Shown here in pieces: positions 3,927-62,569 of a stretch of DNA of 64,000 nt. The stretch covers positions 35,355 through 99,354 of the forward strand of contig JAOUBX010000007.1 in the NCBI GenBank assembly GCA_029860075.1, in the 5' to 3' direction. This DNA comes from Deltaproteobacteria bacterium. GTDB lineage: Bacteria; Desulfobacterota; JADFVX01. The notes under the pieces were generated by a model, which had not been told where the DNA came from, did no database searches, and saw nothing but the letters and a program-made list of their open reading frames with translations. A program made the translations under genes and the position numbers. Every line of letters begins with the position of its first letter. Within the stretch, counting starts at the first letter, position 1.

Positions 3927-3953
3927 GTATCTGAATTATAGATTGACTGAAAA

Positions 3954-41864: not shown

Positions 41865-42889
41865 TGCAGGCAAGCTTACCTAAAATCGGCATCTCCATGG
41901 GAGACCCTGCGGGAATCGGGCCGGAAATAATCCTTAAGGCCCTGACAGATGAAAAGGTTCTGAATACTTGCCTCCCTCTTGTCATCGGTGATAGCGGTGT
42001 CCTTCATGAGATGGCCAAAAAGCTGGATATTCCTTTTCCGCTGACCTCACTGGATACCCTTTCAGATTGGCAAGATAATTCTTCTCCTGCCATCCTGTCT
42101 CTTACATCGCTTCAGCATGCAGTCTGCGGAGAAGTATCCAAATCATCAGGACATGCCTCGGGCTTGTACATTCAAAAGGCCGCAGAACTTGCCCTTGGCG
42201 GTGAAATTGACGGCATTGTTACGGCGCCCATTAACAAGGAATCATTCAATCTGGGAGGTTTTGACTATCCGGGGCATACGGAATTTCTGGCCCACCTTAC
42301 TAAAACGGAAAATTACGCCATGATGCTCATGGGGGAGACGCTGAGAGTGGTGCTTCTCACCATTCACTGCCCACTCATGGAGGTTGCCGGGAGACTTACC
42401 AGGGAAGACACGATAAGGATTATCAGGCTCTCCCATGAAACGCTGAAAACATATTTTGCCATAGAAAATCCCAGGATTGCCCTGGCTTCGTTAAATCCAC
42501 ATGCCGGAGAAGGGGGCCTATTTGGTGAGGAGGAGGAACAAATCCTTATCCCTGCATCCCGTATGGCCAGGGAGGAAGGCATCGATGTGACTGAGCCTCT
42601 GCCGGCAGATACGCTCTTTTTCAGCGCCGTCAGGGGAAAGTATGATATCGTTGTATGCCCTTACCATGATCAGGGCCTTATTCCACTGAAACTGCTTCAT
42701 TTTGAAGACGGTGTCAACGTAACGCTTGGTCTTCCCATTGTAAGGACCTCTCCCGATCACGGGACGGCTTTTGATATAGCCGGAAAAGGTCTTGCAAAGC
42801 CGGAGAGTATTAAGGCTGCTATCTTTACAGCCCTTACTATGATCCGGGCGAAGAAGACATCTCAAGGAGGCATTGCTTATGAAAAGTGA
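41864..42889 (+). CDS. pdxA: 4-hydroxythreonine-4-phosphate dehydrogenase
   Basis: GDPAGIGPEI, TAPINK, GHTEFLA, LNPHAGE.G and YHDQGLIP motifs are present. Confidence 0.9.
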   Translation: MQASLPKIGISMGDPAGIGPEIILKALTDEKVLNTCLPLVIGDSGVLHEMAKKLDIPFPLTSLDTLSDWQDNSSPAILSLTSLQHAVCGEVSKSSGHASGLYIQKAAELALGGEIDGIVTAPINKESFNLGGFDYPGHTEFLAHLTKTENYAMMLMGETLRVVLLTIHCPLMEVAGRLTREDTIRIIRLSHETLKTYFAIENPRIALASLNPHAGEGGLFGEEEEQILIPASRMAREEGIDVTEPLPADTLFFSAVRGKYDIVVCPYHDQGLIPLKLLHFEDGVNVTLGLPIVRTSPDHGTAFDIAGKGLAKPESIKAAIFTALTMIRAKKTSQGGIAYEK

Positions 42890-44312
42890 AATAAAATTCG
42901 GTACTGACGGCTGGAGAGGTGTTATCAGCCGCGATTTTACCTTTGAAAACGTGAGGTGGGTGAGTCAGACCGTGATTGATTACCTGAAAAAAGAGCATCT
43001 CCATGGGAAAGGGCTTGTCATCGGTTATGACAGACGCTTTCTTTCAAAAGAATATGCCCAGGAGGTTGCTTCTGTTGCCGCTGCCAACGGCGTAAAGGTT
43101 TTTATGGGGAAGAACTTTGTTCCCACTCCTGCCGTGTCCTGGGCCGTCAAGGAAAAGAACGCCGCAGGCGGGATAATGGTAACGGCCAGCCACAATCCGC
43201 CAAAATACAATGGTATCAAGTTTAAGGAGGCTTTTGGTGGTTCGGCCTTGCCGGAGACGACGGCCCTTATCGAAAATATGCTTGAGAAAAGACAGCAGGA
43301 GGGAAAGGAACCCCTTTCCGGCAGTTTTGGTGATGAAGTGGCAAAGGGAAATATTATCGACTATGACCCTCTCGAAAGTTACTTGAGGGCAGTGCGAAAC
43401 TTTGTTGATCTCGATAAGATCAAAGGGAGTGGTATCCGGGTTGCCTATGATCCCATGCATGGCGCAGGTAGTGGCAGTATTGGCGCCATACTTGATGAAA
43501 TAGGCATAGAGGTAAGGGAAATAAGGGGGGATGATAACCCCGGTTTTGGCGGCATCAGTCCTGAGCCGATAGACAGGAACCTGGAAAAGCTCATGAAGAT
43601 GGTGGCCCGGGAGAACTATGATATCGGCCTTGCCACTGACGGAGATGCAGACAGGATTGGCGCCGTTGATGGTGAAGGAAAGTTTTTTAACTCTCACAGA
43701 ATACTTACGGTGCTTGCCAGGCATCTCATTGAAGAGCGGGGAATGCAGGGCAGTATCATCAAGACGGTTTCGGGAACAGCCATGATCGATCATATGTCCC
43801 GTAAGTTTGGATTAAAGGTGGAAGAAACGCCTATCGGTTTCAAGCATATTTGCAAGAAAATGCTAAAGGGAGGCGTCTTGCTGGGAGGAGAAGAAAGCGG
43901 CGGCATCGGTATTACCTCACACCTTCCCGAAAGAGACGGTATTCTCGTCGGACTTTTGCTCGTAGAAATTATGGCTGTTAAGGGGAAGGGCATCTACGAT
44001 GTGCTGGAAGAAGTTTTTCATGAATTCGGTCCTTTCCATTACGACAGGATCGATGTGGAGATAAAAAAGGAAGAGATGGCAACGGTGAGATCGCTCCTTG
44101 AAAGCTATCACCCGCAAAGCATTGCCGGTATGAAAGTAAAGGGTGAAAACAGGATGGACGGTGTCAAATTCCTTCTGGGAGAGAGAAGCTGGCTTCTCAT
44201 CAGGGCTTCGGGAACGGAACCGGTACTCAGAATCTATGCAGAGTCCGACTCCCCTGAAAATGTAAAGAAATTGCTTGATGAAGGAAAAGAGGCTGCCGGG
44301 CTTAGGGATTGA
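42879..44312 (+). CDS. Phosphoglucomutase/phosphomannomutase family protein
   Basis: FGTDGWRG, active-site TASHNPPKYNGIKF, metal loop ATDGDADR, GGEESGG, and RASGTEP near the C-terminus. The ATG at 42879 follows AAGGAGG. Confidence 0.88.
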   Translation: MKSEIKFGTDGWRGVISRDFTFENVRWVSQTVIDYLKKEHLHGKGLVIGYDRRFLSKEYAQEVASVAAANGVKVFMGKNFVPTPAVSWAVKEKNAAGGIMVTASHNPPKYNGIKFKEAFGGSALPETTALIENMLEKRQQEGKEPLSGSFGDEVAKGNIIDYDPLESYLRAVRNFVDLDKIKGSGIRVAYDPMHGAGSGSIGAILDEIGIEVREIRGDDNPGFGGISPEPIDRNLEKLMKMVARENYDIGLATDGDADRIGAVDGEGKFFNSHRILTVLARHLIEERGMQGSIIKTVSGTAMIDHMSRKFGLKVEETPIGFKHICKKMLKGGVLLGGEESGGIGITSHLPERDGILVGLLLVEIMAVKGKGIYDVLEEVFHEFGPFHYDRIDVEIKKEEMATVRSLLESYHPQSIAGMKVKGENRMDGVKFLLGERSWLLIRASGTEPVLRIYAESDSPENVKKLLDEGKEAAGLRD

Positions 44313-44617
44313 TTAAGAATAGTTCCCCCGGAATCAGCAGCGATTCCCGGCCTGTCCCTATGGAAATCTGCAACAATTATTTCTGCCTGGAATGACGCAC
44401 AGTCATGGTTGTTTCGACTCGGAGGTTTCCGGCCGGAGATCTCTGTCCGGGAGTTTCTGAGAGGTACCGGGTTAAGACCTCTCACTATATTCGAGACAAG
44501 AATTTCTCCTCGCACCCCAAGGGCGCTTGTCACTTTGTTCAGGCGCATTTCAAATGACAGGTCAGCGCAAGTTCCCAAGGGGACATGACTGAGAGATCTC
44601 CCGAATTTATTCAGGGC

Positions 44618-45259
44618 TTAACAGCAGCCCCGAACTTGCGGATGGCAGCAGCAGTCATGATGGTGATAGTCATGGCTGTCATTACAATGGCAGGAACAGC
44701 CGCCATGCGGCCCGCAGTCATCATGATAATTAGGGTGGCAGGTACCATGATGGGAACCATGATGAGGATCACAATGGGAGCCATGATGAGGGTCATCATG
44801 ATGCCGGCTGCATGCATGCTGTCCTGATAAACCACCCATGAGAGAAAGTCCGCCTGCGAGGCCTGTATTGATAAAGTCGATTCCAAGGCGTACCATTCCA
44901 CCGACTTTATTGAGCAATTCCTGGTTTCCTTCATGCGCTTTGGGCGAAAGCGGCATTCCTGTGGGCGCTGAAGCATGATGGTGATGGTAACTTCCGTAGG
45001 GTTGTCCATGAATATGATATTGAGGCGGGAATGCCTGGATCTTCCCGGCATTAGCTGTCCACTGCTTACTTCTGTATGCCTCTGCCTGTCGCTGAAATTC
45101 TTCGTAGGCTTCTTTTGCGCTTGTCCCCTTCTCACCCAATGTTTCCCTTGAGACCACGTTTTCAGTGGCTGCGCTCAAATTTTCTCTGAGAGAATTAATG
45201 TTATCTGCCTTTACTTCTTTTATTGTTTTTGCTGATTTCTTTCGTGGTCTTGTAGCCAT
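44618..45259 (-). CDS. Orphan protein with Gly/Leu-rich segment and extreme His/Cys-rich C-terminal tail (operon gene 11)
   Basis: SD AAGGAG. 213 aa. The last 66 aa contain about 19 His and 12 Cys by hand count (..HHDDPHHGSHCDPHHGSHHGTCHP...HDCCCHPQVRGCC). No signal peptide. Confidence 0.65.
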   Translation of the reverse strand: MATRPRKKSAKTIKEVKADNINSLRENLSAATENVVSRETLGEKGTSAKEAYEEFQRQAEAYRSKQWTANAGKIQAFPPQYHIHGQPYGSYHHHHASAPTGMPLSPKAHEGNQELLNKVGGMVRLGIDFINTGLAGGLSLMGGLSGQHACSRHHDDPHHGSHCDPHHGSHHGTCHPNYHDDCGPHGGCSCHCNDSHDYHHHDCCCHPQVRGCC

Positions 45260-45293: not shown

Positions 45294-45917
45294 TTAACAG
45301 CTGAATACCTCACACCACCTGACGCGGGCAATAGTGTTAATGGTGAGGGCAATTAACCTGGCGCCCGGATTTACCGTAATAATATCTTCTTTAATGTGAT
45401 AGCCGGGCTGGATAGGGTCTTTCACCCAGACTAATGTGTGGTCTTCACTATCTTCCACTGCAACTGCAACGAGGGACTTTGCCGTATTGTCATTTTTCTC
45501 CAGCATATACTCAACTGACAGGTGAACGCAGCAACCACCGCCGATTATGCTCTTTTCAGCGCCTATGCCGGCGCTGGATAATAAAAGTGGTTTAAAAAGT
45601 AAGCCCGCTGTTTCAAAACCGTTTAATTTCTCGGAAATAAGTTTCACTCCCTCTTTAGGGTCCCGTATAATCAGGGGTTCTACCAAAAGTTCCTTTGATT
45701 CCTTGCGGCAATGTTTGTGTCCGCAGCAGCATTTGCTCACAGGGTGGCAACAGGAATGACAAAAATGATGATTATGGCCATGATGATCATGCCCATGATA
45801 ATGAGGGCGGTGATAGCTGTATGCAGGGGAATTTGCCCGACGACGTACATTCCGGGTTGCCACATCAGCCGGGTTTCCCCCGGCATCAGCAGAGTTTGTA
45901 TTAATAGTTAAAGCCAT
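45294..45917 (-). CDS. Orphan protein: His/Cys-rich N-terminal region plus about 100-aa beta-rich domain ending RWCEVFSC (operon gene 10)
   Basis: SD GGAGG. The N-terminal region reads HRPHYHGHDHHGHNHHFCHSCCHPVSKCCCGHKHC. The C-terminal domain is paralogous to gene 9. Confidence 0.65.
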   Translation of the reverse strand: MALTINTNSADAGGNPADVATRNVRRRANSPAYSYHRPHYHGHDHHGHNHHFCHSCCHPVSKCCCGHKHCRKESKELLVEPLIIRDPKEGVKLISEKLNGFETAGLLFKPLLLSSAGIGAEKSIIGGGCCVHLSVEYMLEKNDNTAKSLVAVAVEDSEDHTLVWVKDPIQPGYHIKEDIITVNPGARLIALTINTIARVRWCEVFSC

Positions 45918-45956
45918 GTTTTGTCCTCCAAATAAAAAAATAATAAAAAGTTTAAA

Positions 45957-46412
45957 TTAACAAATCAGGTCTTCACACCACCTTAGCCTGGCCCTGCATT
46001 TTTTTACCGTTAAACTGATTACCGAACCCGGCGGGAGTTGAAGGGGTAATTTTTTCACATAATATCCGGCAGGCGCCGATGTAATAGATAGAACCACTAC
46101 AGAGTCAACTTTTACTTCTACTAATAAGGGGTCCGAACCGTCAGAGAGGTATTCCAGATTGACGGTAACGTCATTTTCTCCACCAATGTATGTTTCGGCC
46201 TCTCCTATCCCGGCAAAGCTGTCGGCAAATATTTCTTGAGGGTACTTTATAAGTATTGCTGATGGACAGCAACACTCATGGGGCGGATGATGGCAGCCGG
46301 GACAAAATTCCGCTGAAGGTACAGCATAATAATGGGGCGCCGGAGTCTGATAGTTATACCCGCAGCACGGGCAGCAAGACGCATGATGCGCAGGGTAAGT
46401 ACAGTTATGCAT
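45957..46412 (-). CDS. Paralogue of gene 10: Cys/His-rich N-terminus plus beta-rich domain ending RWCEDLIC (operon gene 9)
   Basis: AGGAGG lies 9 nt upstream of the ATG at 46412. The N-terminus reads HHASCCPCCG...CPGCHHPPHECCCP. The shared positions AGIG..IGG..V.LEY...PG...LT...AR.RWCE...C align by eye with gene 10. Confidence 0.65.
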   Translation of the reverse strand: MHNCTYPAHHASCCPCCGYNYQTPAPHYYAVPSAEFCPGCHHPPHECCCPSAILIKYPQEIFADSFAGIGEAETYIGGENDVTVNLEYLSDGSDPLLVEVKVDSVVVLSITSAPAGYYVKKLPLQLPPGSVISLTVKKCRARLRWCEDLIC

Positions 46413-46430
46413 TTTCACCACCTCCTGAAA

Positions 46431-46613
46431 TTAGGGTTGTTGTTCCTTGGTTGCTTCCTTGATGCTTTCCAGGGTATCATCGACTATACTGAAACTGCTT
46501 TTTACTACCGTATTTAAAACTTCTGTAACACCCTCGGTAAGCTTGCTCGATATAATTTGATTTGCCGTTTCATTGATTACCTTGTTTAATGGTCCCAGCA
46601 GACTTATTGCCAT
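46431..46613 (-). CDS. 60-aa hypothetical helical protein (operon gene 8)
   Basis: SD GGGAGGTGA. Amphipathic sequence with no Cys or His. No recognisable family. Confidence 0.5.
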   Translation of the reverse strand: MAISLLGPLNKVINETANQIISSKLTEGVTEVLNTVVKSSFSIVDDTLESIKEATKEQQP

Positions 46614-46665: not shown

Positions 46666-48126
46666 TTATTGGATAAAAAGATGGCGGGCTGATATACCCT
46701 TTTTCATTGAATGAATTCCAAGATCTGAAGCTTTTGAGATTACATCCATTCCCCAATTGAGATTTTTTGTGGGGTTTTCCATCATTCTGCTAATAATCCT
46801 CGTTAAGTCTATTAATGTCCTTAATCCACTTTTAAGAACCCCGCCGGACCCATTATTTTGGGACTGATTCAACAGTTTAATCCAGAATGCCGGATTGACA
46901 GGAATGGCGTTCACTATGGTTAAGGGTGAGAAGCATGCGCTTGCCGGTGTCACGCCTGTAAATATTCCGCCACACATGTCTCTGAATTCCTTACTGTTTC
47001 TTGTCATCTCACAAATCATTTTCAGTGCAAGAAGGTAGGCTTCTCTTAAATTTGGATTTCTTGCGATACTTAATATGAGACTCCCTGTGAGCCTGTCCAG
47101 TCCTGATATGTCATCCTGGATTTCATTAAAGCTATTTAGGTTTTCAGCGGAAAAGTCATTTCTTTCAAGAGCATTCATGGCGATAAAAGCCGCCAGGTGA
47201 CCACCTTCAAGGGCAATATGAATACCGCCGCCATTTATGGGGTCCGTCATATTTGCCGCATCGCCTATCAAAAGGACCCTTTCTGCGACGGTTTTTTCCA
47301 ATTTAGGAAAACAGGCCCTGCCGCCGCCCAGTTTTTCCGGTTTGGCGTCTTTTTTTAAGCGATGAGACAGATTTTTTGCGACAAAATCGTCAAAAACCTC
47401 TTTAAGATGAGGTTTCATGGGGAAATTGGCGTCATAAACATAGCCGACACCCACATTTGCACGTCCACTGTCGTCGGCAAAAACCCAGCCATAACCGGGG
47501 AAAAAATCTTTATCGAAGTATATCTGGACTTTCGATTTATCTATGATCATGTCGGGGTAATATGCCCTTATGGAAGCGGCAACGGACTCCCCCTTAATAC
47601 TGTTGCCGATCTCCCTGGAAACGACCGAGTTTACACCGTCAGAACCAATAACCATTTTGGCTTCATAGGTGACAGGTGCATTATCTTCAATGGCTTCTAT
47701 GCATATGCGATCCTTTTTGGCAGCAATTTTCTTTACATGGCAGCCTTCTTTAAACGTTACTCCTGATGAAACGGCATTTTTTACCAATATATGGTCAAGC
47801 GTTCTCCGTTCAAGTTGTACGCCGAAACCGGGGAACTTTTCCCCTTCCGGAAAACCGCTGGAAATAACATATTCGCCGTTGACATAAAGGTCACCTGAAT
47901 CGGTATAGCCTTTACATTCATCGAGTACCTCATTAATGCATCCCAGCATATCGATCCAGTAAACGGCTTTAGGGGCCAGAAAGTCACCACAAACCTTATC
48001 TCTGGGGAACCTGGACTTATCGAGTAATAAGACATTTACCCCTTCCCTTGCAAGAAAGGTAGAGGTGCTGCTTCCACCGGGACCGGCACCGACGACTATG
48101 ACGTCATAAAAATTGTTGTTTGCCAT
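46666..48126 (-). CDS. FAD-dependent oxidoreductase, geranylgeranyl-reductase family (operon gene 7)
   Basis: The N-terminal YDVIVVGAGPGGSSTSTFLAREGVNVLLLDKSRFPRDKVCGDFL and the later LIGDAANMTDPINGGGI are typical of the GGR/FixC-type family. At 486 aa it has a C-terminal extension. Confidence 0.7.
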   Translation of the reverse strand: MANNNFYDVIVVGAGPGGSSTSTFLAREGVNVLLLDKSRFPRDKVCGDFLAPKAVYWIDMLGCINEVLDECKGYTDSGDLYVNGEYVISSGFPEGEKFPGFGVQLERRTLDHILVKNAVSSGVTFKEGCHVKKIAAKKDRICIEAIEDNAPVTYEAKMVIGSDGVNSVVSREIGNSIKGESVAASIRAYYPDMIIDKSKVQIYFDKDFFPGYGWVFADDSGRANVGVGYVYDANFPMKPHLKEVFDDFVAKNLSHRLKKDAKPEKLGGGRACFPKLEKTVAERVLLIGDAANMTDPINGGGIHIALEGGHLAAFIAMNALERNDFSAENLNSFNEIQDDISGLDRLTGSLILSIARNPNLREAYLLALKMICEMTRNSKEFRDMCGGIFTGVTPASACFSPLTIVNAIPVNPAFWIKLLNQSQNNGSGGVLKSGLRTLIDLTRIISRMMENPTKNLNWGMDVISKASDLGIHSMKKGISARHLFIQ

Positions 48127-48161: not shown

Positions 48162-48863
48162 CTAAACAGGGGAACTCACAATGATTACCAGGGGTATTTG
48201 ATACTCATCTTCCCCTGAAACGGTGACGAGGCCCCTGTATGCATCAGGCGGTGCATTTTCAGGTATCTTCCCTGAAAATACGAGTTTCTCAAAATCCATC
48301 GGTGCAATGGATATTTTTGATGGATTAATTTTGAAGGACTTTGCATTTATCTGGAAATTAGTTTTATCTCCCACAAAATCAGCGGCAGCCGCAAATTGCA
48401 GTTGTTTTGATCCCTGATGCGTTTCATTATCTATTGAGAAGGAAATCGTTACTTCACCACCGGCAAAGGCAGGCATCCTGTTGCTGACAAGGGGCTGGCT
48501 GTTTTCCGGTTCCTGCCGATGGTTTGGCGGTGCTTCAGGAGGCGCTGTTTGTTCCTGGCTCTGGCCTGTAAATTTTCTGATTAAATCTTCATAGTTTACT
48601 TTTGGGCCTGATGAATCTTCCTGCGTCTGGGTTTTCAATATGTCTGACGCCTTGTCGGAGGCAACGCCTCCAAGTTTGCTAACCAGGTTAACGCCCAGTT
48701 CAAGCCCTGTTTCTACAAGGTCGATCCCTCTGTCAAAAATTACGCCTATTTTGTCAATATTGTCCTTCGATGAATGGTTGCTGGATTGAGACGCTCCTTC
48801 GTCGCCGCCTTTAGAAGAATTTCCGTTCTTTTTTTGAGACTTTTCCGATTCGGTTTTAACCAC
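48162..48863 (-). CDS. Orphan protein: low-complexity N-terminus, Gly/Leu motif, Ig-like C-terminal domain (operon gene 6)
   Basis: GTG start after AGAGGA. GIDLVETGLELGVNLVSKLGG resembles segments in genes 5 and 11. The C-terminal roughly 100 aa look like a CARDB/NEW3-type beta-sandwich (..PDAYRGLVTVSGEDEYQIPLVIIV). Confidence 0.6.
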   Translation of the reverse strand: MVKTESEKSQKKNGNSSKGGDEGASQSSNHSSKDNIDKIGVIFDRGIDLVETGLELGVNLVSKLGGVASDKASDILKTQTQEDSSGPKVNYEDLIRKFTGQSQEQTAPPEAPPNHRQEPENSQPLVSNRMPAFAGGEVTISFSIDNETHQGSKQLQFAAAADFVGDKTNFQINAKSFKINPSKISIAPMDFEKLVFSGKIPENAPPDAYRGLVTVSGEDEYQIPLVIIVSSPV

Positions 48864-48964
48864 TTTATCCTCTTTATGCTTTATTTTTACGGGTACTTTG
48901 GGGTATGTACTATGGCATTTCTTCCCCTCTATCCCGAAAATCTATCTTTTTATACTGCCGCTAT

Positions 48965-49279
48965 CTAACAGCAGCAGGAACAGCCGCATCGTTCATGATG
49001 AGGAGGATAGCAGTCGACTGTATAGCAGTGCTGATCACAGCAATGACTGCTGCACCCATGATGACCGTGATGACCGGAGTGATGGTAAGAATGAGACCCG
49101 CCACACCTCGGATCACCCCAGATAGCGCTGTCCACTATATTTTTTACCAAAGAAGACCCACCGTAAATAAAAGACGATGCCAGGCTTGTCAAACCGCCTG
49201 CAATTCCTGCCAGCCCACCTGTTTGTACCGGATAAGGCGAATGGCATGGATGATGACCATGGTAACCATGATAACTCAT
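48965..49279 (-). CDS. 104-aa His/Cys-rich protein with central Gly/Leu segment (operon gene 5)
   Basis: SD GGGGAGGG. There is a 4-nt overlap with gene 4. The sequence runs MSYHGYHGHHPCH...GGLAGIAGGLTSL...HSYHHSGHHGHHGCSSHCCDQHC...CGCSCCC, with about 16 His and 12 Cys by hand count. Confidence 0.65.
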   Translation of the reverse strand: MSYHGYHGHHPCHSPYPVQTGGLAGIAGGLTSLASSFIYGGSSLVKNIVDSAIWGDPRCGGSHSYHHSGHHGHHGCSSHCCDQHCYTVDCYPPHHERCGCSCCC

Positions 49280-49884
49280 TTTGTTCCCTCCCCATGAATT
49301 GTTAAAGCGACCCTGCTTGCATTTCTTGCAAAAGATGAGACTTCACCTGAAGCCATTGATGCCTCTCTGCATTTTGAAGGAATAGCAGGATTTCCTCCTG
49401 TTGCTTCTATGGCATAACTGCGGTTATGCCTTATTTCCTGTTCTTTCCTGTATTTGTCCCGTGGAATCATATGGGTGCTGCCTTTTAACAGTATTCTGAA
49501 TAGTTCCAGACCCAGAAATTTTCCGCTTACCGTATAATTAGAGGGTACGTGAAAGTCCTGGTACGTTCCAACGGAGATTGGCGGCATTCTTCGTACATTC
49601 ATATCAAGCGGCGGAAGTTGCCTTAAAGCCACATTCATGGGGGGAAGGTTGGTCACCTGAAATTTATCGACTTTGATTGGGTCGATATTTCGGACCTGGT
49701 TGACATGAAAGGAATCGATATTGATAGGATCTATGTGATTGATTTCCTTTACGTGATGGGCAACAGGGTCAATATTGCGGACTTCTTTAACATGGAGGTC
49801 TACAGGGTCAATGCCTTTAACCTCCCTTATTTTCAGGTGTACACTTTCGCTATCACTGTCATTTTGTAAATAAACATTACCCAT
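49276..49884 (-). CDS. Orphan repeat protein with about 7 tandem 10-16-aa IDP(V/I)/LPP units (operon gene 4)
   Basis: SD AGAGGGA. Repeats run LKIREVKGIDPVD / LHVKEVRNIDPVA / HHVKEINHIDPIN / IDSFHVNQVRNIDPIK / VDKFQVTNLPPMN / VALRQLPPLD / MNVRRMPPIS. Confidence 0.6.
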   Translation of the reverse strand: MGNVYLQNDSDSESVHLKIREVKGIDPVDLHVKEVRNIDPVAHHVKEINHIDPINIDSFHVNQVRNIDPIKVDKFQVTNLPPMNVALRQLPPLDMNVRRMPPISVGTYQDFHVPSNYTVSGKFLGLELFRILLKGSTHMIPRDKYRKEQEIRHNRSYAIEATGGNPAIPSKCREASMASGEVSSFARNASRVALTIHGEGTK

Positions 49885-49962: not shown

Positions 49963-50682
49963 TTATGCCGGCCACTTATAATTTGCTAAAATTATCTTCG
50001 CTTCATCGCCGGCAGAGGTCCCGTTTAAAGAAACTTCAACAGTAACTACTGTTGTTGCTTCGCTTATGCTGTTTGGTGCGCGGTAAAAACCGCCGTTATC
50101 AATACTTCCCACTACAGGGCTTCTTGTCCAGGTGATATTCGATGATGTGGAATTACTGATAATAGTCCGGAATTGCTGGACCTTATTGCTATTATCTATA
50201 TAGTTATTCTTATGTCCTGTACGGCAATATAAGTGCACGACCTTCGGGAAAATTTCGATAACCGGTTCGGCTTCAGGTTCAGGACCCACACCTACAATGT
50301 TGACGATGGCCGTTGCTTTCCTGGTGGGATCATCAATTGATGTGGCAACAACGATATCCGTCGTATAATTGCCATAATCAGTATCCGCATCATAATCAGG
50401 CGCTATATAAAGACCTGATGAATTGATACTGCCTTCCCCCGGTTCTCCTTTTTCATTAAATACTTCCCACCTGACTCTGTTTGTGGGGGCATTGAATATT
50501 GCCGAATCAAACTGTATCCGCGTATTTACAGGATCAACGTAGCGTTCATTTTTGAAGTAAACTTCTGCATTTTCAGGCCATATCTCGATTTCTATCTGAT
50601 GCTCGCAAATGATGTGATGATGCCTTACATGGGGTAAGCATCTAACCTGATGGTTTCTATGTCTATGCTTATTTAAATACAT
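49963..50682 (-). CDS. Orphan protein: His-rich N-terminus plus two tandem Ig-like repeats (operon gene 3)
   Basis: The N-terminus reads MYLNKHRHRNHQVRCLPHVRHHHIICEH. It is followed by two roughly 95-aa repeats, each starting IEI(W/F)P and containing (W)...G.I...G.Y.AP. No obvious SD. Confidence 0.55.
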   Translation of the reverse strand: MYLNKHRHRNHQVRCLPHVRHHHIICEHQIEIEIWPENAEVYFKNERYVDPVNTRIQFDSAIFNAPTNRVRWEVFNEKGEPGEGSINSSGLYIAPDYDADTDYGNYTTDIVVATSIDDPTRKATAIVNIVGVGPEPEAEPVIEIFPKVVHLYCRTGHKNNYIDNSNKVQQFRTIISNSTSSNITWTRSPVVGSIDNGGFYRAPNSISEATTVVTVEVSLNGTSAGDEAKIILANYKWPA

Positions 50683-50712: not shown

Positions 50713-51132
50713 TTACTCGTCACAGTCGATGAGGCCGAGTTCTATTGACGGCTTTGCTGAAACCTTGCCATTTAATTTGCCTTCCGCCTCTATTTCGGAA
50801 GAGCACTTCATTTGCCCATCCATTTCCCCGCTTATCTCATCTGTTTTGACTGTTCCGCTTAATCTGAAGGAAGCTCTCTTTACTTTCAGATCAAAGGGGC
50901 TGATTCTTGCCTTAAAAGCCCCTACCGATGCAATCAATACGGGCGCGCGTTTTTTTCTGAAAGGGACAGTCATCTTAATGGGGATTTCATCTATAGCAAT
51001 GTTTATTTCACCGACAGTCATGTCGCCGCGGCCGGAAGCAGTGAGGGAGGCTTTGCACTTGAGCGGATCAAGGCGGGTTTTCATTTTGAAAGAGGGGTTG
51101 CTTTTTAGTATTCCTTTAGCTTTAAAATTCAT
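50713..51132 (-). CDS. Basic beta-rich orphan protein (operon gene 2)
   Basis: SD GAGGAG. The start lies 2 nt after the gene 1 stop. 139 aa, ends LIDCDE. No recognisable family. Confidence 0.55.
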   Translation of the reverse strand: MNFKAKGILKSNPSFKMKTRLDPLKCKASLTASGRGDMTVGEINIAIDEIPIKMTVPFRKKRAPVLIASVGAFKARISPFDLKVKRASFRLSGTVKTDEISGEMDGQMKCSSEIEAEGKLNGKVSAKPSIELGLIDCDE

Positions 51133-51134
51133 AT

Positions 51135-51338
51135 CTACTTCTCCTCACAATCAGAAATTTCACCTTCTTCCCCTTCGGGATAAACACGATCTGCAAGATC
51201 GCCGCACATATCATCGAGGGTGACATTTAAATTTTCGTAGCCTGCCAGGGCTTCATTGAGTTCATTGCAGTTGTCACCTGAAACCTCGAATGAAACGAGC
51301 GGCCCCAGTCTGACTTTAAGTACGATTCTGGACGACAT
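51135..51338 (-). CDS. 67-aa acidic orphan protein (operon gene 1)
   Basis: SD AGAGGGGA. Ends EGEEGEISDCEEK. It is the first gene after the divergent intergenic region. Confidence 0.5.
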   Translation of the reverse strand: MSSRIVLKVRLGPLVSFEVSGDNCNELNEALAGYENLNVTLDDMCGDLADRVYPEGEEGEISDCEEK

Positions 51339-51401
51339 ATAAAGTTCCCCTCTAGTCGATGAAATAATAAAAAAACAAAGTTCTTTCGTAAAATAAGATC
51401 A

Positions 51402-51429
51402 ACTTATATAATTAAAGCAAAATATAAGT
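51402..51429. promoter_or_regulatory. Inverted repeat ACTTATAT-N12-ATATAAGT in the divergent intergenic region (candidate operator)
   Basis: Read directly from the AT-rich 222-bp spacer between the two divergent operons. Confidence 0.3.
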
Positions 51430-51560
51430 CAAGTTATTTTTGAACCAAATGTCAAGGGGCGCAGACTCCTAATGGAATCTGTATAGAAAGTTTACTCCAT
51501 GAAATGGGGGTTGGCAAAAAAAGTTTTTGACCTGAGGAACGAAAAAAATAAAAGCAAGCT

Positions 51561-53309
51561 ATGGTCCAAATTAACGATGTGGATTCCAATAAGATGACCT
51601 TACATTGTCCGGAAAATTGTGCAACTTTAGATAGAGACAGTTATTCTTATTACAACAGTAAGAGAGATCCTCACCCTCCTTCACAGGAAATAGAGATAGT
51701 CAAAACCATATTTCTTAGAGAATACGGGAAAAAGGATCCTCCTTCGGGCAGAATCAGAAGTGGTACCTTTGATGATTTTATGTCTTCTCTGGCAAGTCTG
51801 AAAGCAAAGCATGTAGACACAATCATTCTGCTTCCCCTTCATCCCCTTGGCAAGGCCCTGTGGGGCGCTGTGGCCAGTCCCTATGAACCGATGGATTATT
51901 TTTCAATAGAGCCCTCTCTTGTAAAACATAACTGGGGAGCAGGCACGGCGCGGCTTAAGAGTGAATACAAGCGCTTTAAAAAGAATCATCTCCCCGGAGA
52001 AATGGAGGAATTCAGGCTCTTTAAAAAAAATGTAAGAGTTCTGGAATATGCAAAGTACAATGCAGCAAAACTTATTAGCCGGGAAAAAAACAGGGCATTG
52101 AATGATTTTACTGATTATAAAGATGAGCCTCATTACAAACTGCTTATGGAGGAAACGCTCTTTGAGCAGTTTGTGGCAAGGAAGAAATTCCTTGGTTTTA
52201 TTGAACATGCCCACTGGCTGGGATTGAAGATTATCATGGATATTCCGGGATATTTTGGTACAGACAGTATTGCCGATCTCTTTTATGAAAATTATATCCG
52301 TAAAAATAAAGACGGCACTTATTACCAGCCCGGTTTCGATCAATGGGGGCATGGATGGTATACGCTCAGGCAAATGGAGGTAAATAACTCCAAAGCGCTT
52401 CATTATTTATGTTCCATCTACAGGTATTGGGTTGATGAATTCAAGGTGGACGGCTTCAGGATCGACGCCATACTGACTCAGCCCGATCTTTATGTAAAAG
52501 CTATTCGGCAAGCTGTACCCCATACCTTTCTCCTGGGAGAAACGATAGGAACGTTTAAAGGTGATATTGAAAGGAAGTATATTGATGAGCTTAAGCTCGA
52601 TTCAATCTATAATCCTGAATGGATATGGACAGGTGATATAAAGAAATATCTTGTAAAAGCGCACAAAAGACCTTCCGGCAGGCGATTGTTTCATATGAGG
52701 GATACTCATGACGAAGGGAGGCTCAAAAAGGGAGACCCTTTTTCCATACCTAGAAAGAAGTACCTCTCCCTCCTGGCAATGGCACTCCTGGGACTGCCGG
52801 GGAAAGATATTATCGGTTTTCTCGATGGAAACTTTGATTTGCTGGAAGGGACTCCAGAGCTTCACGAGCTTTATCTGAAAGAGTTTTATGTTGCTGATCA
52901 AAGCAGTATCTGCTTTTCCGATGGGACGGAACTTGGCTCATCAGAGTATATTAAGCGGCTCATATATCTTAGAAAAAAACTTGATCCCCTGAGAAAGAGT
53001 GGTAATATTGTCTTTCTTGAACAATGGAGCAAGCAGATCTCTTCCTATGTGAGAGAAGGGGAAAAGCTTGACGTCATTGTTATAAGCAATGTGGGAGATG
53101 TGAATTTCAGCGGTTCCGTTAAGATCCCGGTAAGGGCCGGTTTTTTTATCGATGAAAATAGGGACATTTGCAAAGATCTCATATCTGGTAAAAGAATAGG
53201 AATTCCTTGCTCCACAGGCAAAGGTATTATATTAACGCTCGATATCGGCCAGTCAGTGGCTTTCTCATTGAAGAAAGGCGATTGCTCTCTTTTGAGAAAG
53301 CAGATTTGA
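51561..53309 (+). CDS. Divergent GH13 (alpha-amylase superfamily)-like protein, cytoplasmic
   Basis: Matches to GH13 conserved regions: region II VDGFRIDAI, region III FLLGETIG, region IV-like MRDTHDE. The region I-like IIMDIPG lacks the usual His. No signal peptide and no clear SD. Confidence 0.55.
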   Translation: MVQINDVDSNKMTLHCPENCATLDRDSYSYYNSKRDPHPPSQEIEIVKTIFLREYGKKDPPSGRIRSGTFDDFMSSLASLKAKHVDTIILLPLHPLGKALWGAVASPYEPMDYFSIEPSLVKHNWGAGTARLKSEYKRFKKNHLPGEMEEFRLFKKNVRVLEYAKYNAAKLISREKNRALNDFTDYKDEPHYKLLMEETLFEQFVARKKFLGFIEHAHWLGLKIIMDIPGYFGTDSIADLFYENYIRKNKDGTYYQPGFDQWGHGWYTLRQMEVNNSKALHYLCSIYRYWVDEFKVDGFRIDAILTQPDLYVKAIRQAVPHTFLLGETIGTFKGDIERKYIDELKLDSIYNPEWIWTGDIKKYLVKAHKRPSGRRLFHMRDTHDEGRLKKGDPFSIPRKKYLSLLAMALLGLPGKDIIGFLDGNFDLLEGTPELHELYLKEFYVADQSSICFSDGTELGSSEYIKRLIYLRKKLDPLRKSGNIVFLEQWSKQISSYVREGEKLDVIVISNVGDVNFSGSVKIPVRAGFFIDENRDICKDLISGKRIGIPCSTGKGIILTLDIGQSVAFSLKKGDCSLLRKQI

Positions 53310-53355: not shown

Positions 53356-54288
53356 ATGATTGATATTGATGATTTTATAAAGAATGACAAAGGGCAGCAG
53401 GAAATCGATCATTGCCTGAAGAGGCTTCGTGATAAAGCTGATGAAGTTTTACGGCCTCTTGCCACAAGCTATTATCCGGCCATGATAGCCCATGATCATG
53501 CCAGTGAATTCAACAAAATGCGTGAGCTCAGCACCAAAATGATGCTTGTGGGGCAGGCATGTGCAGAGATTGCCGGATATGAATTTAATGATAAGCTCAT
53601 TATGTTAAGTGCGCTTTTCGGCGGTTGCTGCTTTCTGGGTGATAGCTTTATCGATGATTATGACGATGAAGAAACACTGGATTATATAAACAGGCTGGAG
53701 CGGCTCCTTACAAAAGGGTGGTTTGAAATAAGTGATGACCGGGAAAAACTCTTTTATGTTATCGTGACAAGGCTTTTTTCTGAATGTGATGTTTTTGAAG
53801 AGAAAACACGGCAGGCCATTTTCGGACAGTTTCTGGCCCAGAAAAGGGATGCTTTATGGAGGCTGGACCATACAGAACTTATGTCCTTATCTCATGATGA
53901 GAAAATCGACGCCCTTCTCCAGTGCGCCAATGACCGGGGTGGATATGTGACTCTCGTACTTTCACTTGTCCTTACTGAGGAGCTTTCTCTGCATTATCAG
54001 CATATTCTCTATCTGGCCGGTAAGCTTTTTATGCATATCGATGACCACGGCGATCACCATCAGGATAAATACAACAAAAGATTTACCTATATGAACAGTA
54101 TCGATAATCCGGCTGATAAACTGGAAAAACTTTTCAATAATATTGTTTCAAAGATCAAGTCGGACTTGCCAGAAAATGGCGGACGTGATATTTTAACAAA
54201 CTTTTTGACACGCTATTATCACACACGCTTAAAAAAACATATTTTGGAGCAAAACAGGGGAAGCAGCAGGTGGGTAATTTATGAATGA
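53356..54288 (+). CDS. All-alpha protein with two DDxxD motifs (isoprenoid synthase / ComQ-like fold candidate)
   Basis: FLGDSFIDDYDDEE at about residue 95 and MHIDDHGDHHQD at about residue 228. The spacing of about 130 aa resembles the FARM/SARM spacing of trans-isoprenyl diphosphate synthases. Confidence 0.4.
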   Translation: MIDIDDFIKNDKGQQEIDHCLKRLRDKADEVLRPLATSYYPAMIAHDHASEFNKMRELSTKMMLVGQACAEIAGYEFNDKLIMLSALFGGCCFLGDSFIDDYDDEETLDYINRLERLLTKGWFEISDDREKLFYVIVTRLFSECDVFEEKTRQAIFGQFLAQKRDALWRLDHTELMSLSHDEKIDALLQCANDRGGYVTLVLSLVLTEELSLHYQHILYLAGKLFMHIDDHGDHHQDKYNKRFTYMNSIDNPADKLEKLFNNIVSKIKSDLPENGGRDILTNFLTRYYHTRLKKHILEQNRGSSRWVIYE

Positions 54289-54874
54289 CTATTCCCATAA
54301 TTACAGGAAGTTATTCGATCGTTTTTCTATAGAACTTCAGTCAATTTATAAAAGGCCATCTGAAAAAGAAAAGGCTCCCCTATTTAATATCAGTTGTGAA
54401 AATGAAGCGGCAAAGGCCCCATTTCAATATGACTCGGCAAATGCCGTTCTTCACAGGACAGGCTGTAAATATATTGATGGAAAATACAACCTTTCTATTT
54501 TTGCCCTGTGGGAAATCAACGAGGAAGACCTCGCTTTTGCCTGTAAAAAATGTAAGCCTCATTTAACCGGAGGAGAGGGTTTGGAAAAAGATCCAGTTTC
54601 AGATATGATGTACGGTATTTTTTCTCTCATCGACCAGTTTGGCTCGGTCCTTATAGAAAGAGGGAAAGAGTATAAAAAAACAGGCAGCGGTAAAAAGCTT
54701 GCCCATTCATTAGGCGCTAATCTCAGTGAACAGCAGGAAAAGCTCCTCGATAAATCCATATCCAGCCTTGACTTGCTCATTAATTCTCTTCATCAGCTCA
54801 ATATGCAGCTGGAAAGCGGGGAGAAGAGAGACAAAAAAGAAGAAAACCATGGTAATTCGGAAAGCGCCAGGTGA
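54281..54874 (+). CDS. Hypothetical protein with H..C...C..C Zn-ribbon-like motif and coiled-coil C-terminus
   Basis: HRTGCKYI...ACKKCKP. It has an 8-nt overlap with the upstream gene and a 4-nt overlap with the downstream gene. Confidence 0.45.
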   Translation: MNDYSHNYRKLFDRFSIELQSIYKRPSEKEKAPLFNISCENEAAKAPFQYDSANAVLHRTGCKYIDGKYNLSIFALWEINEEDLAFACKKCKPHLTGGEGLEKDPVSDMMYGIFSLIDQFGSVLIERGKEYKKTGSGKKLAHSLGANLSEQQEKLLDKSISSLDLLINSLHQLNMQLESGEKRDKKEENHGNSESAR

Positions 54875-55776
54875 GTTCCCATCACTTTACAAGCCGGTAC
54901 AGAAAGAATCTCGACTGGCTGCAAAGCAAGGCAGTTAGTGACCTAAACTATGATATACAGGGGACTTTTTTAACGCTGGAGGTCGATGATAAGGAGCTTC
55001 TGAGCTTGCTGGCAGAGCGTTATGGTTGTTTTTTTTACGGGGAAAAAGTTTCTTCCTCGCGCAGAATCAAAATTAAGAAAAACAAGAGACACTTCATTTT
55101 TACAGATTCCCAGGGGAAATCGTTTCCTTGCCGTCATATGGGTGAAGTACTTTATCCATACCTGGCCCACACTTTCGATGAAATATATGAAGCTCTGGCA
55201 GGCCATTTAGTCTTTCATGGTTCAGCTTTTTCAACAGATGCCGGTGGTATATTGATATTGGGGAGAGCGGGAGCAGGGAAGACCAGCCTCCTCCTGGAAA
55301 TGATTAAAAGGGGTTTTTCTTATATCTCCGATGATGTTTCAATCGTGGATATTTCAGGGAGAAAGGAGTTAATCCCAAATCCACAGGGCTTTAAATTGAG
55401 AGAGCCGCTGTTAAGCTGTCAGGGTGTTGAAAGGTCAGGTTTTAAGGGTAAATATATTAATCCATGTAATATTGATAATTTGGATATTTCATCGACATGC
55501 CCCTTGTTGGCAGTCATATTGCTGGCTGATGAAAAGGGTAATGGTTACGCCGGTCGTCCTGCTTATTTTGGTGATTATGCAGAACCTTTAAGTAAATTGA
55601 TTATTCCCCCTTCAGCAAGAAAGTCTTCTTTAGGGACAATTAGCGCCCTTTTTGATAAAATACCACTTATAGTCATGAATTCCTCAAAAGAAATAGCTGT
55701 TGAGAAAAAAGCTCAAAATATTCTGGACCGGCTTGATCTCAATCACAAAGGTAATTCCACATTAAAAGCAGGGTGA
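54871..55776 (+). CDS. HPr-kinase-C-terminal-like P-loop protein (HprK-related kinase)
   Basis: FHGSAFSTDAGGILILGRAGAGKTSLLLEMIKRGFSYISDDVSIVD matches the HG..V...G.GVLI.G.SG.GKS......L...G..L..DD pattern. Confidence 0.55.
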   Translation: MSSHHFTSRYRKNLDWLQSKAVSDLNYDIQGTFLTLEVDDKELLSLLAERYGCFFYGEKVSSSRRIKIKKNKRHFIFTDSQGKSFPCRHMGEVLYPYLAHTFDEIYEALAGHLVFHGSAFSTDAGGILILGRAGAGKTSLLLEMIKRGFSYISDDVSIVDISGRKELIPNPQGFKLREPLLSCQGVERSGFKGKYINPCNIDNLDISSTCPLLAVILLADEKGNGYAGRPAYFGDYAEPLSKLIIPPSARKSSLGTISALFDKIPLIVMNSSKEIAVEKKAQNILDRLDLNHKGNSTLKAG

Positions 55777-55783
55777 TAGTGCA

Positions 55784-58909: not shown

Positions 58910-59371
58910 TGGTTTCTACAAATTCTAAGGTTAAGCGTTATAAAACAAGCGAGACAATATCAATAACCTGATATCTCTCCTGGCCGGCATTAAAATACTT
59001 GGGATAGAGTCAACAAAAGAGCTTTTTACCTTCTAAAAATATAAAAATTCCACCCCAAAACCAAAGTTACCATCTATTTTAAGGAGCGCAAATTTTTTAT
59101 TAATAATCAGGATCGGCAGGTATCGAAAAAATATTTATAAAAACTTGCATGTGGAAAAACAGATGCTAGAGTTAATCTAGGGGTGGGGATCCCTTTCTTC
59201 TTTGTTTTGTCATAAAAACACCACACTTCTTTAATAAGAGAGAACGTACAGTCACTATCCGGACAATTTTAATATCCGCAAGAGAATCATCATTATTGAA
59301 TATTATCATAATAATTTAAACCAAACTGTCAGTCTTTGAGAAAAGTAACTTTATCAAGAAAGGACGTAGAA

Positions 59372-62300: not shown

Positions 62301-62569
62301 TAGGTAATTGGAACCCGGATAAAGCGGTTAAGCTTGATCCAAATATCTACTACGAATACATCCTACGAGCGGATAAAAAGCTTCCTGGTCCTACGAAACC
62401 AGTCTGGACAAGTGTAATTAATAACCTGCCGCCTAATACTACCTTCGAGTGGAAATGTATACGGCGACATGAAAACGATGCGAACCAGGTTCAGTGGCAG
62501 CCGGGGGACAACAATAAGAAAACTACTGTTACTCATGGCTACGCGGGAAAGAGTTACGGTACCTTTTAA
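59372..62569 (+). CDS. Secreted GH31-family glycosidase/transglycosylase with C-terminal CBM20 starch-binding domain
   Basis: Signal peptide ...ALLATGAADA. GH31-like regions are present (DGFVLDLNWFGG, HWTDLGEPE, AAMWSGDIAS). The C-terminal VNFVCDNGFTTPGESIYVTGSIEALGNWNP...W...F.WKCIRR is CBM20-like. Confidence 0.7.
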   Translation: MAAINNRINFLKVSALILFTGLFALLATGAADAAEVFRTKFKAGSAYLIVEILDDDLAHFELSAIGDGPSTNDSLYTSPMVLKTDYKGAATVSQNNNIIETSEIRLEIDKSNLCIKLIDKSKGNSRLTTVCPVDLSMGLKGINIEPGQIQNIYGLGQEFKRLGSSDGDWIKLGVRQGMSRKSNQQVGFEQAPPGQQFFVDAGNGFQGFQQAAVGNVQIPVYYAVGANNLNYALFMDNIYWQRWDFKKNWWQARMYGDQLRFYFMTGQDLPDLRSDFMELTGTPPIPSRKSFGMWVSEFGYDNWDQVDILKKTLRDDKFPLDGFVLDLNWFGGISPKTNMGRLNWDQDQDALVKNNGYFFPKPSEKIKKYAEDNIRIAAIEESYLARTEPLLDTFKNIPKNFMAYQRNGNSCNSTIEEPVFINAADFWGEGWMFDWSEPALGQWIHNNRRFPELVKRGIHTHWTDLGEPERFEPSACYEGVETTVSGKKNEHTDIHNIYNLLWNKSIWDGYVEKQGQADELGIINPRPLILTRSGAAGTQRYGAAMWSGDIASSLESLATHSNVQMHMSFSGIDYYGADIGGFRREVLPGNKKEGPFNTSYQDEMYTQWFANGSWFDIPVRPHTDNEFGENRNSCKNNFANRKPPCYETAPNLVGKPDSNLANIRQRYELIPYYYSLAYRAYLQGEPVIPPPVFYYQNDSNLREMGHEKMIGRDILVGIVAKHGEYERNVYLPKGRWVNYHSNEWVDSSGEEIKNAPLYREGILRLPAFVRAGAILPQMFVDENTKDAFGHRLDGTAAHNELIVRVYTDERPSTFTLYEDDGLTLNYKESGRPGYHYRTTVLKQQKNNDTVTVTIDPAVNKNGDDEVAKSFNGAVSSRANIVKLIVNNAEAKAVKINNTPLTKYTSQENFDTAESGWYNAANNLIVAKSGKMDVNSTIKVFSFQLRSVPAKTSVNFVCDNGFTTPGESIYVTGSIEALGNWNPDKAVKLDPNIYYEYILRADKKLPGPTKPVWTSVINNLPPNTTFEWKCIRRHENDANQVQWQPGDNNKKTTVTHGYAGKSYGTF

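Follow-up and report, generated by a model that had tools for sequence, protein, structure and literature searches.

What is encoded by two adjacent bacterial genes whose products combine a dense array of Cys and His residues with a beta-rich domain that ends, in both, in the same short motif? The question is raised by genes 9 and 10, two minus-strand open reading frames (ORFs) at 45294..45917 (207 aa) and 45957..46412 (151 aa) of a 64,000-nucleotide stretch of deltaproteobacterial DNA (Desulfobacterota, JADFVX01; GenBank assembly GCA_029860075.1, contig JAOUBX010000007.1, positions 35,355 to 99,354), the whole of which is referred to below as the window. By sequence comparison the two genes are tandem paralogues with a statistically solid similarity; they belong to a collinear operon of 13 genes that spans at least ten phyla, and their products are, on the sequence, cytoplasmic. 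The pair was tentatively interpreted, at a probability of roughly 0.4, as cytoplasmic structural subunits that carry a composite thiolate/imidazole metal site and form part of an intracellular assembly. Features lie on the minus strand unless marked (+).

The gene pair and its conserved residues

Gene 9, the longer paralogue, encodes a His-rich N-terminus, a motif of seven Cys residues and, behind a variable helical linker, a jelly-roll domain that ends in RVRWCEVFSC. The product of gene 10, the shorter paralogue, has an N-terminus rich in Cys, His, Tyr and Pro that is followed, without a linker, by the same jelly-roll ending RLRWCEDLIC. A GGAGG ribosome-binding site is located 7 nt 5' of the ATG of gene 9. 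For gene 10 the ORF tool listed 45957-46421 with a GTG start at 46421; in the DNA, the final base of an AGGAGG ribosome-binding site is the first base of this GTG, and an ATG at 46412 stands 8 nt 3' of the same AGGAGG. Because the GTG overlaps the ribosome-binding site, the ATG at 46412, which is also the end coordinate given in the initial annotation, was taken as the better start. The intergenic gaps of 18-39 nt indicate that both genes are co-transcribed with their neighbours.

The initial annotation, made by eye from the letters, had aligned the two proteins over their C-terminal part. This similarity held under formal statistics: BLASTP of gene 9 against gene 10 gave 26% identity (E=2e-9) and reproduced the shared blocks AGIG, IGG, (L/V)EY, PG...LT and AR(V/L)RWCE...C. 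One block needed correction, since the element written as V.LEY is shared but takes the form V.L.VEY in gene 9 and V.V.LEY in gene 10. Orthologue profiles were built from 89 homologues of gene 9 (~45% identity) and from 33 orthologues of gene 10 taken from related loci, and their comparison with hhalign gave a probability of 99.9 and E=1.8e-31 over 123 columns, which take in the N-terminal Cys motif. The Cys/His strings quoted earlier were exact. Of the accompanying statement that the N-termini are divergent in sequence and alike in composition, the extreme Cys/His composition stands, while the Cys motif within them proved to be alignable and conserved. At least 14 Cys plus His residues within 40 residues occur in only four ORFs of the window, all of them in this operon.

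A structure of the gene 9 product was predicted with AlphaFold2 from the 89-sequence alignment (mean predicted local distance difference test score, pLDDT, 78). The first ~50 residues were modelled at a pLDDT of ~45 and the Cys motif at ~70; residues 117-205 together with a strand at residues 71-79 form eight strands (pLDDT ~83-96), and two helices at residues 87-112 make up the linker. The beta-rich domain that had been described as common to both proteins was thereby borne out as a confidently predicted C-terminal jelly-roll, with pLDDT values above 90. As delimited by the model and by conservation it comprises residues 116-207 (45297..45572) and contains IGGGCCVHLSVEY (C129, C130 and H132) as well as the C-terminal ARVRWCEVFSC (W201, C202 and C207). 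Foldseek searches of the PDB and BFVD with this model returned jelly-roll/beta-sandwich domains only, among them carbohydrate-binding modules (CBMs) of families 16, 6, 22 and 61, the tips of tail spikes and tail fibres, Cry toxin domains and Ena2A fibres, with E values of ~5e-4 to 5e-3 and template-modelling (TM) scores of 0.25-0.4. Judged from the predicted model, this similarity is a generic fold match and not homology. A relationship to viral capsids was considered and rejected, as BFVD gave just generic jelly-rolls (tail-fibre tips).

The N-terminal Cys motif of gene 9 (residues 52-78; 45684..45764), recognized from conservation and from its low rate of change, reads F-C-x-x-C-(C)-H-P-x3-C-(C)-C-G-x3-C-R-K-E-x-K-E-L-L-V and leads directly into the first beta-strand (residues 71-79). 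His-rich tracts stand ahead of the Cys motifs. Across the 89 family members C53 and C56 are each conserved at 99%, C57 at 78%, H58 at 92%, P59 at 100%, C63 at 100%, C64 at 82%, and C65 and C70 at 100%; within the jelly-roll domain the values are 99% for C129, 100% for C130, 97% for H132 and 100% for W164, and at the C-terminus R198, R200, W201, C202 and E203 each reach 100% and C207 reaches 93%. There are therefore 11 Cys and two His positions of ligand type that are fixed at 78-100%, and Cys and His make up 5.5% and 4.7%, respectively, of the residues of the family. In 17 sequences C57 is replaced by Gly, and 14 of these 17 have a Cys at position 67. In the alignment this looks like a ligand swap, though probably one within a single clade, and such an exchange would be expected if the site needs a fixed number of ligands. 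The counterpart of the motif in gene 10, located by hhalign to the gene 9 motif, is FCPGCHHPPHECCC (residues 36-49; 46266..46307). Orthologues from Deltaproteobacteria, Nitrospinota and Gallionella keep it, and those of Nitrospira and of many Alphaproteobacteria have lost it. The gene 10 family retains IGG, LEY, GY, PG and A-R-x-R-W-C-E and has neither the linker nor CC-x-H.

The C-terminus had been described as an invariant Trp-Cys...Cys. For R-x-R-W-C-E this is accurate, as it is present in all 89 gene 9 proteins and is nearly invariant in the gene 10 orthologues; it does not hold for the last Cys, which is conserved at 93% in gene 9 and replaced in several orthologues of gene 10. In gene 9 the terminus RWCEVFSC (45297..45320) recurs unchanged in 59 of the 89 members, the other endings including RWCEIFSC (11), ...SCC (eight) and ...SG (six). 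Gene 10 ends in RWCEDLIC (45960..45983) and most of its orthologues in RWCExxCC. In two of the orthologues (L046 and L054) the motif reads RWFE and the final Cys is missing, four (L014, L023, L027 and L029) keep RWCE with non-Cys final residues, and that of the closest relative (L061) ends in CEDLIY; the non-Cys endings are ITY, VEY, IEY, ATF and LIY. The conservation of RxRWCE in the last strand makes a functional C-terminal site, as had been proposed, a fair inference.

The ratio of nonsynonymous to synonymous substitution rates (dN/dS) is meaningless between paralogues of such low identity, and orthologues from the closest relative (L061; European Nucleotide Archive ERZ27251186, k141_151445) were compared instead; dS was saturated (above 1), which leaves just dN informative. 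For every gene of the operon dN was far below dS, i.e. the genes are under purifying selection. Within gene 9 the lowest dN (0.085) was obtained for residues 51-80, which hold the Cys motif, followed by 0.20 for the jelly-roll domain, 0.51 for the His-rich residues 1-50 and 0.82 for the linker (residues 81-115). The earlier description of a fast-evolving Cys-rich N-terminal region is thus contradicted: the Cys motif changes most slowly within the gene, and the divergence lies in the His-rich stretch of residues 1-50 and in the linker.

A search of 5.8 billion proteins yielded 298 homologues of gene 9, all of them 'hypothetical' or unnamed and none with a precomputed Pfam domain. Genes 9 and 10 matched no model in Pfam (E<=0.1), NCBIfam or PADLOC, in agreement with the initial annotation, which had not recognized the domain, and sequence and profile searches of the PDB with the gene-9 family matched nothing. 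An exhaustive hidden Markov model search of 1.84 billion cluster representatives defined the family at 208 representatives with E<=1e-3 (145 with E<=1e-10), all of them short and of either the gene-9 or the gene-10 type. As delimited by these profile searches the family is small and closed, without a link to other domain architectures. A tblastn search of the PLSDB plasmids with gene 9 gave no match and hence no evidence for plasmid carriage.

The operon and its products

The pair had originally been treated alone, and a surrounding operon of ~13 genes with two more Cys/His-tailed proteins and isoprenoid-type enzymes had been missed. All-against-all BLAST of the contigs with homologues established orthology for 13 consecutive genes in the order g310, g197, g67, g139, g239, g202, (g104HC), g233, GGR, g60, gene 10, gene 9, g213HC. 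A scan of one genome per species (GTDB) gave 56 loci, which represent more than 10 phyla. The hosts comprise Nitrospira and other Nitrospirales (many loci), Nitrospinota, Ca. Methylomirabilis, SEEP-SRB2 and other Deltaproteobacteria, Gallionella, Rhodocyclaceae, several Gammaproteobacteria, Acetobacteraceae, Rhizomicrobium, Reyranella, Solirubrobacterales, Acidobacteriota and Bryobacteraceae, Verrucomicrobia and Chitinivibrionales, and the isolates Paraburkholderia panacisoli DCY113 and Rhodospirillales bacterium URHD0017. A regular-expression scan for ORFs that terminate in R-x-R-W-[CF]-E-x(2-6)-stop found exactly two at nearly every locus that is complete in this region, the gene-10 type (...CC) first and the gene-9 type (...VFSC) second, ~550-750 bp apart (~55 loci). 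From this constant order and pairing it follows that the duplication predates the spread of the operon; neither protein occurs without the other, and the universal pairing of the two sequences suggests a hetero-oligomer. No signal peptide or membrane-spanning hydrophobic segment was found in the 13 operon proteins.

In the window the cluster is split. The genes g310 and g197, together with a gene for an HPr-kinase-like protein, lie on the plus strand (53356-55776), and the remaining cluster genes are transcribed divergently, starting at 51338 and running down to 44618. This split layout recurs in the closest relative, though without a geranylgeranyl-reductase-family (GGR) gene. In that locus (8493-9487 of L061) the GGR gene is missing between g233 and g60, and a cupredoxin gene and an M50 peptidase gene, both lacking in the window, lie downstream. 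The divergent intergenic region (51339..51560, no strand assigned) contains a block shared with the closest relative, CCTTGACATTTGGTTCAAAAATAACTTGACTT...TTAATTATATAAGTTG; it is nearly identical there and carries repeated TTGAC elements, CCTTGACATTTGGTTCAAAAATAACTTGACTT...TTAATTATATAAG. On its sequence it is probably a promoter and regulator site, and no known regulatory box was recognized in 51339-51560.

Scans of all operon proteins against Pfam, NCBIfam and PADLOC gave a single match, that of the GGR protein. This FAD protein (486 aa; 46666..48126) scored 200.6 bits against TIGR02032 (cut-off 158.8) and 30.9 against PF22578, GGR_cat (cut-off 27). Its gene occurs at 53 of 60 loci; as the cluster of the closest relative lacks it, the reductase need not be encoded within the cluster. 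The first gene of the plus-strand group, g310 (310 aa; 53356..54288, +), was modelled by AlphaFold2 as an all-helical domain with a pLDDT of 93.5. All of the top 50 PDB matches in Foldseek were terpene synthases, prenyl-diphosphate synthases or the dehydrosqualene synthase CrtM (TM-scores up to 0.65), and g310 gave no match to Pfam, NCBIfam or PDB sequences. Its invariant motifs D96-S-F-x-D100-D101 and D229-D230-x-G-D233-x3-D237 lie at the ends of helices 79-101 and 212-232; class-I enzymes bind Mg-diphosphate at such helix ends. With bacterial class I terpene synthases, prenyl-diphosphate synthases and CrtM the protein has in common the all-alpha fold and two Asp-rich motifs ~133 residues apart; unlike these enzymes it matches no Pfam or NCBIfam model, its first motif is DxxxDD rather than DDxxD, and its gene is always coupled to one for a 197-aa H/C/C/C protein and to genes for ~11 non-enzymatic proteins, which is not a typical terpenoid gene cluster. 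On the model, g310 seems to represent a new branch, with the class-I fold, of the terpenoid-synthase superfamily. It accompanies the pair in 39 loci and is missing in ~7 loci with otherwise complete clusters. The gene for g197 (197 aa; 54281..54874, +) overlaps the g310 stop codon and is translationally coupled to it; it is conserved together with g310 in the 39 loci, and its invariant residues H58, C62, C88 and C91 suggest a Zn-type site.

The third Cys/His-rich protein, g213HC (44618..45259), was delineated from its ORF and a family alignment and is encoded by the final gene of the operon in at least 27 loci. It combines a helix of the KAEFQEYKKR type and a linker rich in Pro with a conserved Gly-rich helix (LRLGIDLINxGLAGGLxL); its tail is metallothionein-like and has the conserved ending C-C-x-P-S-V-x-x-C-C. 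The start codon of the gene for the fourth, g104HC (48965..49279), and the stop codon of g202 overlap (ATGA). The protein is His-rich at its N-terminus, contains a hydrophobic helix rich in Gly and closes with a Cys/His tail that ends in ...CSCCC; the terminal motif of its family, again with a metallothionein-like tail, is ECVPxxYxxCC. Long plus-strand ORFs at 44585-45135, 45695-45911 and 48905-49297 face the Cys/His-rich segments. Their translations abound in Met, Ile, Val, Thr and Ala, and by this composition they resemble artefacts that mirror repetitive CAY/TGY codons, not genes.

The protein g233 (48162..48863) has a basic and disordered N-terminus, followed by the Gly-rich helix KGLDLAEAGxxLG and a C-terminal beta-sandwich (NRLPLxPG..ISFSINNDS...IAPMDFEKF). 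A helix of ~38 residues, (K/L)GxDLxxxGLxxGxxL, is common to g233 and g213HC (hhalign E=6e-5, probability 65) and may, by this similarity, be a common docking or targeting helix on different payloads. Of the remaining products, g60 (46431..46613) is a small helical protein (MAIxxLGPxNxxINxT...), g202 (49276..49884) carries N-terminal (V/I)xE(V/I)xxIDP(V/I) repeats and has no PDB sequence match, and g239 (49963..50682) combines a His-rich N-terminus with beta-rich repeats (GLYxAP), with a Pfam match in none of its 32 members. The small beta-rich g139 (50713..51132) is the best conserved of the small operon proteins (90% identity to the closest relative, dN 0.046), and the small acidic g67 (51135..51338) is encoded by the first gene of the minus-strand operon.

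A candidate metal site and its alternatives

The ligands of the proposed metal site would be provided by the N-terminal CX2C(C)HPX3C(C)CGX3C knuckle, by CC-x-H, which occurs in gene 9 only and opens an inner strand, and by R-x-R-W-C-E...C in the last strand. If residues 71-79, 131-139 and 195-205 are assigned as strands B, D and I, strand I would lie between B and D, and C70, C129/C130/H132 and C202/C207 would meet, by canonical jelly-roll topology, at one edge of the BIDG sheet. The converged ligands could then hold a soft metal or a metal-sulfur cluster in one composite site. Thiols are reduced in the cytoplasm and hence available for metal, and the conserved Cys/His array of the gene 9 family is dense and of metal-thiolate-cluster type. 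The products of genes 9 and 10 would act as structural subunits, probably of a hetero-oligomer, and may build an intracellular multi-protein assembly together with the two other Cys/His-tailed proteins and several small beta-sandwich proteins. The metal would be either stored in this assembly or used to bridge its subunits, and g310 and the GGR-type reductase would provide an isoprenoid component.

Metallothioneins and His/Cys-rich metal-storage proteins, e.g. SmtA/BmtA and Hpn, offer a partial parallel. The pair resembles metallothioneins in its extreme Cys/His content, in its CxC, CC and CxxC spacing, in its cytoplasmic location and in being Cys-rich up to the C-terminus; it differs from them in that the Cys/His segments are joined to and interleaved with a folded jelly-roll, in the strict spacing of the motifs, in matching no metallothionein model of Pfam or NCBIfam and in having no recurrent metal-homeostasis neighbours. 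This last point is one of several that weigh against a metal site. In a Pfam census of the flanks (141 ORFs from ~43 dereplicated loci) no recurrent metal transporter, metallochaperone or metal-responsive regulator was found, and the metal-linked neighbours are isolated: one ZIP transporter (L031) and the one cupredoxin of L061. The gene 10 family has lost CC-x-H and often the N-terminal Cys motif and yet retains RWCE, so that a metal site cannot account for all of the conservation. Moreover, the convergence of the ligands in three dimensions is inferred from canonical topology and from a predicted model, and the isoprenoid enzymes are left with no obvious role under the metal hypothesis. As for the ZIP-family zinc transporter gene of L031, a Gallionella metagenome-assembled genome, it is located at 3205-3963, on the immediate upstream side of the cluster and adjoining the relocated reductase gene; no other metal transporter was seen beside a cluster.

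The isoprenoid enzymes would be given a role if g310, possibly with g197, prenylated the C-terminal Cys or the invariant Trp of the four Cys-tailed proteins and the GGR saturated the chain, leaving lipid-anchored proteins. Geranylgeranylation of Rab proteins at -CC/-CXC and prenylation of a Trp of ComX by ComQ are the known counterparts, and the operon shares with them the -CC, -CxC and -xC endings of four proteins, an invariant Trp near the C-terminus and an isoprenoid-diphosphate-utilizing fold. Each of the four Cys-rich families has a Cys or Cys-Cys among its last one to three residues (...VFSC, ...xxCC, ...PSVxxCC and ...YxxCC(C)), and their proteins are the sole ORFs of the window (>=60 aa) with the searched motifs, which include a -CC or -CxC ending. 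The confident class-I fold of g310 with its invariant Asp-rich motifs at the canonical helix ends, the invariant H/C/C/C residues of g197, the score of the reductase above the GGR cut-off and the co-occurrence of g310 with the pair in 39 loci point in the same direction. We nevertheless regard this modification as unlikely. Unlike the Rab and ComX systems, the operon encodes no protein prenyltransferase of the alpha/beta farnesyltransferase or geranylgeranyltransferase type that Pfam detects, g310 matches no Pfam polyprenyl-synthase model (the family of ComQ), and the substrates would be folded domains instead of short peptides. The terminal Cys is not universal either: it is found in 93% of the gene 9 family, and gene 10 mostly ends in -CC but can dispense with the Cys in several orthologues; no ending is a canonical CaaX. 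The cluster of the closest relative lacks the GGR gene, ~7 otherwise complete clusters lack g310, and a Cys-rich end is unspecific for prenylation, since metallothioneins too have one. Somewhat further from acceptance is a version that joins both ideas, in which a widespread and hitherto unrecognized cytoplasmic assembly of the jelly-roll pair and the two Cys/His-tailed proteins would be lipidated covalently on C-terminal Cys or the invariant Trp by a g310-type transferase, with the chain saturated by the GGR; we consider this improbable.

Disulfide cross-linking instead of metal binding is suggested by the Ena endospore appendages of Bacillus, for which Ena1A and Ena1B have been described as tandem paralogues of jellyroll fold whose N-terminal connector contains a spacer as well as a Cys-Cys motif and is disulfide-bonded to Cys residues in strands I and B (10.1101/2020.08.21.260141). 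By analogy the paralogues studied here would co-polymerize into a fibre or lattice by beta-sheet augmentation, and the linker-tethered N-terminal Cys segment would be disulfide-bonded to the strands of neighbours. The architectures run parallel, with tandem paralogous genes, a single jelly-roll (BIDG/CHEF), an N-terminal Cys segment and Cys in the terminal strand; gene 9 has CC motifs, C202 in its last strand and C70 just ahead of its first, its linker varies from 35 to 80 residues, and Ena2A fibres were among the Foldseek matches (probability 0.91-0.95). These matches are weak (TM-scores 0.25-0.40) and no better than those to CBMs, and neither DUF3992, the Ena family, nor any other Pfam family is matched. 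The modelled Cys motif adjoins the first strand without the spacer of the Ena connector, and the 11 conserved Cys plus His far exceed what cross-linking needs. The operon, with its 13 genes and isoprenoid enzymes, occurs mostly in non-sporulating Gram-negative hosts and in actinobacterial non-spore-formers, not in the spore-forming Firmicutes of Ena, and its products would face a reducing cytoplasm with no export route in the operon. To our knowledge, Ena subunits also lack signal peptides. A covalent polymer of this kind is rather unlikely.

The CBM-like folds raise the further idea that the operon builds or decorates a cytoplasmic polyglucan body, with the jelly-rolls associated with alpha-glucan as in a glycogen granule. 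CBM16, CBM6, CBM22 and CBM61 are among the top Foldseek PDB matches (E ~5e-4 to 5e-3, TMt ~0.36), and the only recurrent family in the flank census is glycoside hydrolase (GH) family 13 (PF00128), found at eight of ~43 loci (13 before dereplication) from four phyla. A maltodextrin-glucosidase-like GH13 gene lies right behind the final operon gene in other phyla (11451-12716 of L003 and 10924-12711 of L041). In the window, a GH13/GH77-like alpha-glucan enzyme (51561..53309, +) is inserted between the two halves of the cluster, where it is accessory and not core, and genes for a phosphoglucomutase (42873-44312) and a GH31+CBM20 protein (59336-62569) lie nearby. Most loci have no GH13 gene, however, the likeness to CBMs is generic, with neither a sequence relation nor a CBM match in Pfam, and the context is intracellular; we know of no CBM with Cys/His-rich extensions. 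As the invariant Cys/His residues, RWCE and the isoprenoid enzymes would also be left unexplained, we think it quite unlikely that the proteins serve alpha-glucan.

The invariant W201-C202 could also be cross-linked to a cysteine-tryptophylquinone-type cofactor if the flavoprotein were a Trp hydroxylase like QhpG or LodB. Its NCBIfam scores for these families, 76 bits for QhpG and 55 bits for LodB, are far under the cut-offs of 240 and 400, while the GGR cut-off is passed; the flavoprotein is absent from the cluster of the closest relative, and the cluster contains no radical S-adenosylmethionine enzyme and no amine-dehydrogenase or oxidase partner. Such cofactor maturation is very improbable. 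A magnetosome or mad/mam cluster was rejected on the grounds that mam-type genes are absent and most of the hosts are not magnetotactic, binding of c-type haem by 'CHSCCH' because the sequence differs from CxxCH and a signal peptide is lacking, precursors of ribosomally synthesized and post-translationally modified peptides in view of the folded 150-250-aa domains under uniform purifying selection, and anti-phage defence for lack of a PADLOC match.

Surroundings and significance

The cluster in the window is embedded in ordinary chromosome, with genes for ATP-citrate lyase, DapA, MreB, RecA, alanyl-tRNA synthetase, Mfd, SurA, PdxA and phosphoglucomutase. Downstream of g197, at 54871-57577 (+), a gene for a 301-aa protein with an HPr-kinase C-terminal domain overlaps the g197 stop codon and is followed by one for a T2SSE ATPase of the MshE type that carries an MshEN domain; both genes are linked to the cluster in L061 only and in no other phyla, and are lineage-specific, non-core genes. 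Two genes resembling those of ATP-citrate-lyase subunits (Citrate_bind, ATP-grasp_2, CoA_binding and Succ_CoA_lig domains) are located at 301-3926 (+) and, by their domain content, suggest an autotroph using the reductive tricarboxylic acid cycle. A stretch of lower GC content (~0.39-0.43) at 12732-15878 (+) encodes a 1048-aa protein with zinc-dependent phospholipase C and InlB B-repeat-like domains.

Comparison with Ena/DUF3992, metallothioneins, prenylated proteins and CBMs showed in each case that at least one defining feature fails, which places the pair outside these known systems. A full-text search of the literature for the family, the operon or the literal motifs found no description, and family and operon are described by no curated model, solved structure or paper found in our searches, the GGR being the only operon product that matches a curated family model. 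Operons this large and widespread usually encode a discrete cellular structure or pathway. Two cultured isolates carry this one, which makes the system directly testable. The combination of Cys/His tails on four proteins with a terpenoid-synthase fold and a prenyl reductase points to either a new metal-handling body or a new protein-lipidation chemistry, in hosts that include the nitrite oxidizer Nitrospira, Methylomirabilis, Gallionella, the methane-seep partners SEEP-SRB2 and common soil Alphaproteobacteria and Actinomycetota. If the lipidated assembly were real, it would be the first native bacterial protein-isoprenylation system, and its product would be a metal-thiolate-rich, lipid-coated protein body.

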